In this document: positions 27,721 to 34,401 of the stretch, in pieces
Position numbering within the stretch: the stretch's first letter is position 1
Layout: every line of letters begins with the position of its first letter
Assembly (NCBI GenBank): GCA_963828165.1
Contig: CAWHDR010000001.1
Coordinates: forward strand, 672,001-736,000
From: an uncultured Chloroflexia bacterium
GTDB taxonomy: Bacteria; Chloroflexota; Limnocylindria; Limnocylindrales; CSP1-4
DNA: 64,000 nucleotides
Direction of reading: 5' to 3'
Notes under the pieces: generated by a model
The model's input: only the letters and a program-made list of their open reading frames with translations
Database searches by the model: none
Told to the model about the DNA's origin: nothing
Program-made: the position numbers and the translations under genes

Positions 27721-31252
<3,532 letters not shown>

Positions 31253-31472
31253 CCTGTCGGACCTGCGAGCCGAGCTTGGCACATGGTCTGGGCGACCCCG
31301 TTGCGGCGGTTGGTCGGCGAGTATAGCCGGACCATCGGGAGGCTCCGGAACCACCCCAGACCGGCGCACTCCGCGCCAGTCCGCCCCTCCCACCCGGGCA
31401 CAAGGTCACGCGCCTGCGTGACCTTTTCGCCAGTGACATCCGGGGTTCTCCGGACGATGCTTCCGCAAACGC

Positions 31473-31559
31473 TCTGACCGAACGAGCACACCCGTCGTGA
31501 GGCGGGGCCGCAAAGCCACGGGCCTGCGCGATGCAGGTAGCCGAGTTGCCGAAGCAGAA
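31473..31559 (+). ncRNA. GEMM-I (c-di-GMP-I fold) riboswitch, A20 variant (candidate 3',3'-cGAMP sensor)
   Basis: GAGCACACCCGTC-GTGA-GGCGGGGCCGCAAAGCCACGGGCCTGC-GCGAT-GCAGGTAGCCGAGTTGCCGAA matches the Vc2 aptamer (recalled sequence) in register: P2 with GNRA loop, GCAAAGC, P3, GTAGC, GTTRCCG. It lies in the 5' UTR of the CDS at 31647. Confidence 0.9.
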
Positions 31560-31646
31560 CCGATCCCCGCCCAAGGGATTCCCCGACGCCCCCCGTCGGA
31601 GCCGGCTACCTCGACCCCGCGGCCCAATGACGAGGGAGTCGAGTCC

Positions 31647-33294
31647 ATGCGGAACATCCGGGTTGCCGACCGCGCCGACTGGGTCTTCGAGGCCCCCAAG
31701 CCGACGCCTCCGAAGCCGGGCAGGCGACTCCGCGATTGGCTGGCGACGCTCCCCATGATCCTGCTCATTCCCGCGCTGGTGCTGCCATTCATCGCCACGT
31801 CCGCCGCCGGCGAGGGCACGCTCGTGGTGACGCCGACTACGGTCTCGTCCGGCGATCGCCTGACGGTCCGCGGCGAGAACCTGATGAAGGGCAACGCCCG
31901 ACTCGTCTGGGACGACGACGCTTCCATGTCGACGGCGATGCGAGTCAAGGGCAATGGCACGCTTCGCACCACGATCGACGTCCCAAGGTTCAAGAACGGC
32001 GAGCACAAGTTGACGATCATCTCGGCGAACGCCGCAGCCCCCGCGACGTCGGTGACCGTGACGGTCGTCGCGGCGCCACCGGCTGCCACCCCGGAGCCGA
32101 CGCCGGCTCCAACCCCGACCCCGCGGCCGACGCCGGCTCCCACCCCGACCCCGAGGCCTACGCCGGTACCGACTGCGGTCCCGACTGCGGTCCCGACACC
32201 CGCGCCGACCCCCGTCGCGACACCCGCGCCGACACCCGTCGTCACGCCGGCAGCGACACCGATCGCGACGCCAGCGGCGACACCCGTCGTCACACCTGCG
32301 CCGACACCCCTGGTCACACCTGTGCCGACGCCCGTCCCGACGGCGGTCCCGACGCCCGTCGTGACCCCGCGACCCACGCCGGTGCCCACCCCACCCGACC
32401 CCCATCCCGACGCCCGTCGTGACCCCGCGACCCACGCCGGTGCCCACCGCGGTCCCGACCCCCGTCCCGACGCCGGTCCCGCCCCCCGCGCCGCCGGTTG
32501 GTGATCCCTGGGCCGTCCCGTTCGCGACCCGGCCGGCGTCCGGCCCGATCCGACTGGCGAACTGCTCGAACGTCGTGATCGAGGGCAAGACCTTCAAGGA
32601 TCTCGGCGCCGGGGTCATCGCCATCCGCATCGAGAACTGCTCGAACGTGACGATCCGATCCGTCGACTTCCTGAACGTGGCTGAAGGCGTCTACGCCCTC
32701 AACTCATCGAACATCAAGATCATCGATTCGCGATACAGCAACATCACCGGGCCGGCCCAGCCGCGGACCGGCGCCAACGTCGGGAACTTTGTCCAATTCA
32801 ACAATGTTGCCGGCGGGCTCATCGATCACAACAAGGGCAGGAGCGGTGACACCGAGGACATCGTGTCGGTGTATCAGTCCGATCACGTCATCGTCGAAGA
32901 CAACCATTTCGAGGGCACCAACTGGACGAGCGCATCCGGCTCCGGCATCGCGCTGGCGGACGGTGGCGGCTCGTACAACATCGCACAGCGGAACATCCTG
33001 CTCAATCCCGGTCAGGTCGGCATTTTCATCGCCGGCGGCCTGAACAACAAGATCCTCGGCAACACGATCTACGGCGAGCAGCGCCTCAGGTCGAATGTCG
33101 GGCTCTATGTCTGGAACCAGTCGAGCTCGCCCTGCTCGGGCCAGGAAGTCACCGGCAACCGGGTCTACTGGCGCAATGCCGCCGGCAGCGCGAACCCGGC
33201 GTGGAACGCAGGAAACTGCGGAACGGTCACCGGCTGGTCGGCGAACAACTGGTCCGCGACGTTCGACATCAGCACCCTTCGCGTGCATCTCTGA
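31647..33294 (+). CDS. Secreted protein: signal/TM + Ig-like domain + long Pro/Thr linker + right-handed beta-helix (pectin lyase-like); frameshift near 32390
   Basis: ORFs 31497-32504 and 32419-33294 join across the PT-repeat; C-domain has [36 protein letters not shown] and Asn ladders; RBS GAGGGAG. Confidence 0.8.
32080..32495 (+). repeat. Low-complexity Pro/Thr linker including an exact 44-bp direct repeat
   Basis: (PTPV/PTPA)n; TCCCGACGCCCGTCGTGACCCCGCGACCCACGCCGGTGCCCACC at 32347-32390 and 32405-32448. Confidence 0.85.
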
Positions 33295-33360: not shown

Positions 33361-34401
33361 GTGCCGATCGACCCGCGTTCGCGAATCCCGCTGGTCGTCT
33401 TGGCGTTGATCGCCGTGTCCGCCCTCGCGCTCGTGGCCCTGCCTCGGCTGCGTGGGCCGAGCACGCCGCCCCGGGGGTCCGCCATACCGACAGCGGCGGC
33501 CGAGGTATCGGCATCCCCAGACCCGACCGGGGCGCCCGCCTCTAGAGCTCCAGCGATCGCCTGGACCGTTCCGTTCCTGAGCCGACCGACGTCCTCCGCC
33601 ATCTCCCTCCGGAACTGCAAGGACGTCGTCATCGAGAACCGGACCTTCAAGGACCTCGGGCCGGACGTCGAGGCGATCCGTCTCGAGGACTGTCATGGGG
33701 TGACGATTCGGAACAACGACTTTGCCCGTGTGGCGCAGGCCATCACGGCGACGGACTCCACCGACATCCGCGTCGAGTGGAACCGCTACAGCGAGATCCT
33801 CGGACCGCACGAGCGTGTCGGCCTGAACCGCGCCAACTTCGTCCAGTTCGACCAGGTTCGCGGCGGGTACATCGGCAACAACAAGGGGCGTGGCGGCGAC
33901 ACCGAGGACATCGTCAGCCTGCACGACTCCGGAGGCTCCGCCGAGGAACCCTTGTACGTCGAGTACAACCACTTCGAGGGTGGGGACTGGTCGAGCAAAT
34001 CCGGTTCAGGGATCGCGCTGGGCGATGGCGGATCCTCACATTCGATCGCCCGCAACAACGTCCTGCTCAACCCGGGTCAGGTTGGGATCTTCATCGCCGG
34101 CGGGACGAACCACGCGATCATCGACAACGTGCTCTACGGCGAGCAGCGCCCGTCCTCCAATGTTGGGATCTACGTCTGGAACCAAGGCGATGGAGCGTGC
34201 TCCGGTCACGAGGTGCGTGGCAACAACGTCCATTGGCTGCGCGCCGACGGCGAGCTGAACAGCGGTTGGGATGCAGAGAATTGTGGCCCGATCGCGGGAT
34301 GGTCGACCAACGAGTTCCTGCCGGTCCTCGATCCGGCGCAGCTCACGGTCGACCTCGACGACCCCGCACCGACCGGGGCGTTCCCGGAGCTGGGTCGCTA
34401 G
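33361..34401 (+). CDS. Membrane-anchored right-handed beta-helix protein (paralog 2)
   Basis: N-terminal TM, short linker, same domain: [39 protein letters not shown]. Confidence 0.85.
   Translation: MPIDPRSRIPLVVLALIAVSALALVALPRLRGPSTPPRGSAIPTAAAEVSASPDPTGAPASRAPAIAWTVPFLSRPTSSAISLRNCKDVVIENRTFKDLGPDVEAIRLEDCHGVTIRNNDFARVAQAITATDSTDIRVEWNRYSEILGPHERVGLNRANFVQFDQVRGGYIGNNKGRGGDTEDIVSLHDSGGSAEEPLYVEYNHFEGGDWSSKSGSGIALGDGGSSHSIARNNVLLNPGQVGIFIAGGTNHAIIDNVLYGEQRPSSNVGIYVWNQGDGACSGHEVRGNNVHWLRADGELNSGWDAENCGPIAGWSTNEFLPVLDPAQLTVDLDDPAPTGAFPELGR

Follow-up and report, generated by a model that had tools for sequence, protein, structure and literature searches.

An A20-type GEMM-I riboswitch in a Chloroflexota exopolysaccharide cluster probably senses c-di-GMP with lowered affinity

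A GEMM-I riboswitch that carries adenine at the position of Vc2 G20 is probably a lowered-affinity c-di-GMP switch controlling an anchored beta-helix protein within an exopolysaccharide cluster of an uncultured soil Chloroflexota bacterium. The riboswitch lies in the window, the whole 64,000-nucleotide stretch of DNA analysed here (C1:672001-736000), which belongs to a 3.31-Mb genome (G000) in 6 contigs that is 87.7% complete and has a G+C content of about 70%. c-di-GMP is the most likely ligand because no route of cGAMP synthesis was found and because relatives of this aptamer swap base 20 freely; we infer the identity of the ligand, the OFF direction at this locus and the substrate of the enzyme.

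A cmscan search of the window against Rfam 15 returned c-di-GMP-I (RF01051) as the sole family at gathering level, with a match at 31475-31553 (+) that scores 57.3 bits (E 1.4e-8; cut-off 35 bits) and extends over model positions 1-87 of 87. The first-pass annotation, made from the letters of this DNA, had read a GEMM-I riboswitch here in the register of Vc2 and had named a covariance-model search as its check. The match bears this reading out: the RF01051 alignment places all of its coordinates correctly, base 20 (31485, model position 11) is A and not G, and the outer limits that had been given agree with a seven-pair P1 stem. The parts of the aptamer are as follows.

31473-31558 (+), GEMM-I aptamer including the P1 stem, from the RF01051 match; all P1 pairs are standard
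31485 (+), A at the equivalent of Vc2 G20, a ligand-contacting base; model position 11, assigned with top posterior probability
31486 (+), equivalent of G21, read from the alignment
31497-31500 (+), GUGA (GNRA) tetraloop of P2, from sequence and alignment
31509 (+), equivalent of C44, the interhelix position, read from the alignment
31512 (+), A at the equivalent of A47, the base that intercalates in the ligand; model position 38
31549 (+), C at the equivalent of C92, which pairs with the ligand's G-beta; model position 83

A31485 is unpaired and lies directly 5' of the first G-C pair of P2 (G31486-C31511). P3 pairs CCUGC (31523-31527) with GCAGG (31533-31537), and P1 can be drawn as seven standard pairs joining 31473-31476 and 31478-31480 to 31550-31551 and 31554-31558. 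All helices and conserved junction letters are intact, with one non-standard pair in P3. In GEMM-I aptamers, G20 reads the ligand's G-alpha. This aptamer has A31485 in place of that G, a departure that the curated RF01051 family nonetheless includes, and its other pocket letters are those of GEMM-I (A47 is A31512, C92 is C31549 and C44 is C31509); A20 together with C92 on a GEMM-I fold is also the letter combination of GEMM-Ib. The likeness to Vc2 of Vibrio cholerae (RF01051) comprises the three-helix fold, the GNRA tetraloop of P2 and the letters A47, C92 and C44. Unlike Vc2, the aptamer has A for G at position 20, a short P3 without the large internal loop of the model, and the junction GCACA...G(C/U)CGC instead of GCAAA...GACGC. 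This junction variant, which defines the aptamer subclass followed below, is widespread in records of Chloroflexota, Gemmatimonadota and Actinomycetota. Because P3 is short, the top-scoring model of the clan is c-di-GMP-I-UAU (RF03168), at 60.9 bits, below its own cut-off of 65.9; membership was rejected on this score and on the letters at positions 20 and 92, which are A and C, not U and U. c-di-GMP-I-GGC (RF03167), a lower-scoring clan member, was also rejected, as it needs G47 where this aptamer has A31512.

That A31485 stands for a G altered by an assembly or sequencing error appears extremely improbable. An 816-nt soil-run contig of depth 2 (X1 record 1), representing a strain about 95% identical, spans 31000-31515 and has no difference listed at 31485, though just 21 of its 24 differences are shown. 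The context AACGA followed by GCAC, with A at this site, recurs in six further distinct aptamers outside this assembly (among the matches listed). Judged from these sequences, an assembly error is unlikely because A recurs at the position across many independent related assemblies. Most of the relatives' Logan contigs from soil runs match the conserved core 31486-31522 alone. Across soil metagenome runs, a great many contigs from other organisms contain a match to the same core, with a summed depth of about 1900 in run X3; the aptamer subclass is therefore abundant in soils.

Published binding data describe how A20 affects ligand choice in other aptamers. In the available part of PMC6140456, wild-type Vc2 binds c-di-GMP at picomolar levels, its G20A mutant binds c-di-GMP at 53 nM and cGAMP at 120 nM, Gs1761 is reported to be selective (0.53 vs 660 nM), and Cbe 1-2, a naturally occurring A20 aptamer, has affinities of 30 nM for c-di-GMP and 463 nM for cGAMP. 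The same portion calls bispecificity widespread and suggests that P1 stability contributes to selectivity, in agreement with the first-pass annotation, which had cautioned that some such aptamers are promiscuous. The accessible text of PMC6456294 reports that one A20G substitution flips the selectivity of Gmet_0970, and that of PMC4744006 cites another mutation of Vc2 G20 that costs 30,000-fold in affinity. By analogy with these partial accounts, A20 would permit cGAMP binding without establishing it, and affinity for c-di-GMP would be lowered but still usable. The closest functional analogue that can be named is perhaps Cbe 1-2 of Clostridium beijerinckii, likened to our aptamer by A20 and by its published binding: it is a natural A20 aptamer outside Geobacter that binds both ligands and prefers c-di-GMP (PMC6140456, in the part available), although it belongs to another phylum and has another scaffold. 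A20-type GEMM-I aptamers outside Geobacter are thus already in print, as the same part of PMC6140456 attests, and a search for literature on c-di-GMP riboswitches of Chloroflexota found none. In the mechanism we favour, c-di-GMP would pair with a protonated adenine, as described for Vc2 G20A, Gs1761 and Cbe 1-2, and A20 would give nanomolar rather than picomolar affinity, tuning the threshold upward while leaving the signal unchanged. The RNA would probably bind 3',3'-cGAMP in vitro too, in a cell without an evident source of it.

The first-pass annotation had gone further and proposed that the organism may use cGAMP. A20 with C92, in the 5' leader of a cell-surface-related gene, is indeed shared with the Geobacter GEMM-Ib riboswitches (Gs1761 and Gmet_0970). 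Unlike those systems, this one belongs to another phylum, its sister aptamers vary at position 20, the controlled genes appear to encode glycanases as opposed to functions in exoelectrogenesis, and no Hypr GGDEF or CD-NTase was found here. Hypr GGDEF enzymes are marked by Ser348, which replaces the canonical Asp nine residues after Asn339 (PMC6456294 and PMC8835794, in the parts available). The source genome has 18 GGDEF and 7 EAL matches in 3.3 Mb, which has the appearance of a full, ordinary c-di-GMP system, and each of its 15 readable GGDEF domains (those that keep the N-x8 motif) has Asp, with GG(D/E)EF or GPDEF; the mapping of the specificity residue was checked against PleD (chain residues 290-446). 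Asp is likewise present in every readable GGDEF domain (47/47) of three A20-bearing congeners whose genomes are 77-88% complete (18/18 in G017, 16/16 in G019 and 13/13 in G007). The SMODS family of CD-NTases has no match in the source genome (87.7% complete) and exceeded its cut-off in one of the 61 genomes searched; the DncV-like Pfam family PF21654 gave no match in the source genome, and none in any control genome either. The sole genome with SMODS above the cut-off carries it at G083:C227:2442-2810 (L260, 50 bits), and the protein is probably a defence-system cyclase. The first-pass annotation had pointed to Ser or Thr at the specificity Asp, or to a CD-NTase, as the sign of a cGAMP synthase: the count is zero among the readable GGDEF domains and zero for SMODS in the source genome. 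With neither a Hypr GGDEF nor a SMODS CD-NTase found, and with position 20 varying in relatives, the proposed use of cGAMP found no support.

We surveyed related aptamers for the base at position 20. RF01051 is present in 32 of the 61 genomes searched, the source genome included, with 74 matches in total; by group, it occurs in 31 of 36 further genomes of the genus versus 0 of 24 sister-family genomes (about 1 Mb). The 37 sampled genomes of the genus contain 19 aptamers of the subclass, 9 with A20, 8 with G20 and 2 with C20. An exact-pattern scan with one genome per species yielded at least 82 aptamers in at least 80 loci, with the following letters at position 20.

All labels: at least 82 aptamers, G 51, A 26, U 3, C 2 (among the matches listed)
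Chloroflexota: at least 41 aptamers, A 22, G 17, C 2 (among the matches listed)
Gemmatimonadota: at least 21 aptamers, G 15, A 3, U 3 (among the matches listed)
Actinomycetota: at least 11 aptamers, G 11 (among the matches listed)
Dormiibacterota, Omnitrophota, Bacillota and Gammaproteobacteria: at least 9 aptamers, G 8, A 1 (among the matches listed)

Merging the genus aptamers with the Chloroflexota-labelled matches listed (one locus was in both) gave 55 distinct aptamers of the subclass, with A in 29, G in 23 and C in 3 among the matches listed. A20 occurs mainly in two conserved contexts, AAAUA (20/29) and AACGA (7/29, including this aptamer; among the matches listed), which points to selection and not drift. 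The aptamers occur in two types of leader. Leaders of the short type have the start codon within a few bases downstream of the aptamer and encode proteins beginning M-x-F-W-D/N-G; of 33 such leaders, 20 have A, 10 have G and 3 have C at position 20 (among the matches listed). This locus is of the second type, whose spacer measures about 95-125 nt and whose proteins open with (M/V)-R-N-I; the 11 leaders of this type have A in 3 (this locus, L024 and L047) and G in 8. A20, the conservation of which in related loci the first-pass annotation had singled out as informative, is thus not fixed even within this type. The genes controlled by second-type leaders are homologous modules rather than syntenic orthologues, because the Wzy protein encoded beside this locus is unmatched at the others and the N-terminal modules are 38-51% identical: tblastn with the Wzy protein gave no match beside ten sister leaders of this type or beside L135, and the N-terminal 140 aa of the protein encoded here show that range of identity to the relatives' riboswitch-controlled proteins. 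Among the sister leaders, the beta-helix domain was matched only at L024 (tblastn).

These patterns bear on what A20 signifies. The presence of A20, A47 and C92, the conservation of A20 in two fixed contexts (among the matches listed), the coexistence of A20 and G20 aptamers (one each in the source genome, several of both in G012) and the flipped selectivity of Gmet_0970 on A20G change (PMC6456294, in part) would all suit a true 3',3'-cGAMP-selective, GEMM-Ib-like riboswitch fed by a synthase that is neither Hypr nor SMODS, with A20 and G20 leaders dividing the glycanase genes between two signals. We regard this as unlikely, given that the searches of four A20-bearing genomes yielded no candidate synthase, that C occupies position 20 in 3 of 55 aptamers (among the matches listed), which fits no A-specific pocket, and that A20 alone is bispecific, with Cbe 1-2 preferring c-di-GMP, in the available part of PMC6140456. 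A broader version, in which the A20 and G20 forms are two stable aptamer states for two dinucleotide signals and A20 senses cGAMP or another A-G dinucleotide made by an unrecognised synthase, seems hardly likely either. Several of these observations do weigh against c-di-GMP as the ligand. A20, selected in two contexts, could mark a different ligand (among the matches listed); the A20G flip in Gmet_0970 indicates that the base can matter (PMC6456294, in part); and a synthase might be of another kind or be encoded in the missing 12% or so of the genome. In addition, the AAAUA context ends in A-A-U-A, like the pocket listed for the Geobacter cGAMP riboswitch 4YAZ (A11, A12, U13 and A14; PMC7288161, in the part available), whereas the context ahead of A20 in our aptamer reads ACGA.

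The occurrence of A, G and C at position 20, together with a C92 kept in this aptamer, could also be accommodated if another G-containing dinucleotide were sensed (linear pApG, pGpG or a mixed cyclic species) and only the G-beta/C92 half of the ligand were read tightly. We hold this to be quite improbable: the literature consulted contains no precedent in the parts available, the remaining pocket and the fold are canonical c-di-GMP-I (57.3 bits), and this gene family also stands behind many subclass aptamers with G20. A lowered-affinity c-di-GMP riboswitch thus remains our preferred reading. The A20 letter alone is no sound basis for annotating cGAMP signalling, because here it is common (29/55, among the matches listed) alongside ordinary diguanylate cyclases and without a recognisable cGAMP synthase.

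The second GEMM-I aptamer of the source genome lies beyond the window at C1:748380-748455 (-) and has G20, A47 and C92. It is found just downstream of a large GGDEF-EAL gene (GGDEF 750081-750548, EAL 749313-750023), and aptamers of its class also lie between GGDEF genes in G017 and G019.

The riboswitch with A20 precedes a gene set among polysaccharide genes, with these features.

29687-31393 (-), divergent upstream gene for a Wzy_C (O-antigen ligase/polymerase-like) membrane protein, given as context only (Pfam PF04932, 2.6e-14)
31647-32504 (+), controlled gene, first part: short N-terminal tail, one membrane helix, Ig-like module and PT-rich linker, from the translation
32399-32403 (+), C5 run with a +1 frameshift that splits the controlled gene, from three-frame reading
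32419-33294 (+), controlled gene, second part: right-handed beta-helix domain (Pfam Beta_helix PF13229, 4.9e-13; NosD PF05048, 1.8e-8)
33361-34401 (+), next gene downstream, a paralogous secreted beta-helix protein (Pfam Beta_helix, 7.4e-11; NosD, 4.2e-10)

The ATG at 31647 sits 8 nt downstream of the Shine-Dalgarno sequence GAGGGAG (31632-31638). A Pfam search with the first part of the controlled gene (31647-32504) gave no match. We read 31647-33294 as one gene of about 548 codons that has apparently been split by a homopolymer indel, either an assembly error or a genuine break: the frame is lost near 32400, where the C5 run lies between two identical copies of a 36-nt linker segment set 58 nt apart, and the +1 frame leads on into the beta-helix domain. 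Several homologous genes of relatives likewise lose frame in their PT-rich linkers, losses that may reflect assembly errors. The downstream paralogue (33361-34401) is possibly co-transcribed with the controlled gene. Pfam matches among the neighbours include Wzz/tyrosine-kinase-like, GDP-mannose dehydratase, GDP-fucose-synthase-like epimerase, Wzy_C and PIG-L proteins, as well as a nucleotidyl transferase, GT2 and GT1/GT4 glycosyltransferase families and a dTDP-sugar epimerase. On these domain assignments the neighbourhood is an exopolysaccharide or O-antigen-like cluster; together with the G+C content of about 70%, they confirm the surface-glycan setting in a high-GC organism that the first-pass annotation had described.

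Downstream ORFs of the aptamer subclass cluster together, sharing an N-terminal tail, a membrane helix, an Ig-like or other module and a PT-rich linker, and their C-terminal domains vary among Beta_helix, Alginate_lyase (PF05426) and GH16 (PF00722). The beta-helix domain encoded at this locus is of a kind found in glycan-cleaving enzymes; a sequence search of the domain against solved structures gave nothing below E 0.3. A conserved sequence M-(x)-F-W-D/N-G-x-x-W follows right after the start, before the membrane helix, in proteins of L029, L043, L044, L048, L050 and many other loci, and is apparently a conserved cytoplasmic tail motif of most proteins controlled by short leaders. This tail may resemble the motif of Pfam DUF2510.

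We modelled the leader between aptamer and start codon for a possible expression platform, and two elements emerged.

31603-31610 (+), candidate anti-aptamer switching sequence, an 8-nt exact complement of the P3 3' strand (31536-31543), from the unconstrained fold
31610-31643 (+), predicted hairpin sequestering the Shine-Dalgarno sequence GAGGGAG (31632-31638), in minimum-energy and centroid folds

The segment 31603-31610 adjoins the anti-Shine-Dalgarno strand and, in the unconstrained fold, pairs with the 3' half of the aptamer. Comparable exact complements of at least 7 nt occur in 3 of 11 sister leaders, so that the folding models weakly suggest a switching role for this sequence. In the predicted folds, the G residues of the Shine-Dalgarno sequence have a probability of being unpaired of at most 0.07 whether or not the aptamer is enforced; enforcing the aptamer leaves Shine-Dalgarno accessibility unchanged in this leader, and likewise in most of the 11 leaders. 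RNAfold z-scores of the leader are weak (-1.87 and -1.07), and MAFFT with RNAalifold revealed no structure shared by the 11 sister leaders beyond the 3' end of the aptamer. A consensus scan of 31000-32000 found neither a sigma-70 promoter nor an intrinsic terminator. At 31403-31432 (+), about 40 nt upstream of P1, an 8-bp G+C-rich hairpin is followed by TTTT; it was passed over by the terminator scan, which requires 5 T.

The short-leader type is more explicit about the direction of control. Both strands of an extended P1, 5'-CC-N-CG with CG-AA-N'-GG, are carried by 30 of 33 distinct leaders (among the matches listed), and the GG of this extended P1 is the start of the Shine-Dalgarno sequence GGAG. 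At least 3 of the 4 extended-P1 pairs form in 27 of the 30 leaders, and 20 of the 30 have A-U at the variable pair where 4 have U-A, a compensatory change (both among the matches listed). The start codon lies 3-12 nt past the matched motif in 29 of 30 (among the matches listed). Solved structures of GEMM-I show that ligand binding stabilises P1. Leaders of the short type should therefore be OFF switches, because the ligand stabilises P1 and P1 holds the Shine-Dalgarno sequence. For the leader studied here we lean slightly towards the same direction by analogy; the models sequester its Shine-Dalgarno sequence with the aptamer closed or open. Under c-di-GMP control, ligand binding would close P1 and translation would be off at high c-di-GMP, as implied by the sister leaders. 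Such a logic would hold back matrix-degrading enzymes at high c-di-GMP, with a glycan-cutting enzyme controlled from inside the cluster that builds that glycan.

The frameshift at 32399-32403 in the controlled gene, and a Shine-Dalgarno hairpin predicted in both states, might instead be the marks of a leader that is decaying or that acts independently of ligand. This strikes us as very improbable, given that the helices and junction letters of the aptamer are intact apart from one non-standard P3 pair, that the strain about 95% identical keeps the region, and that the frameshift falls in a homopolymer within a repeat, in a linker type that also loses frame in relatives.

The preferred reading, a c-di-GMP switch of lowered affinity, points to c-di-GMP-controlled anchored glycan-cutting enzymes (beta-helix, alginate-lyase-like and GH16) in uncultured soil Chloroflexota, a group whose physiology seems little studied. 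The P1 stem of the aptamer appears to incorporate the ribosome-binding site in many of these leaders. If position 20 tunes affinity, the leaders would form a natural series on the setting of a riboswitch threshold.

Some relatives carry more than one aptamer at a locus. Near-identical pairs of G20 aptamers lie on one strand, about 490-545 nt apart, at L037 (G010:C16), L038 (G008:C27) and L027 (G016:C2), with a small ORF apparently following each aptamer. At L053 (G012:C8:105738-122077), five GEMM-I aptamers, some of them degraded (42-57 bits), occur within about 13 kb; three are of the A20 type and one is a G20 aptamer of the other junction type, in what appears to be a locally expanded set of anchored-protein genes under riboswitch control.
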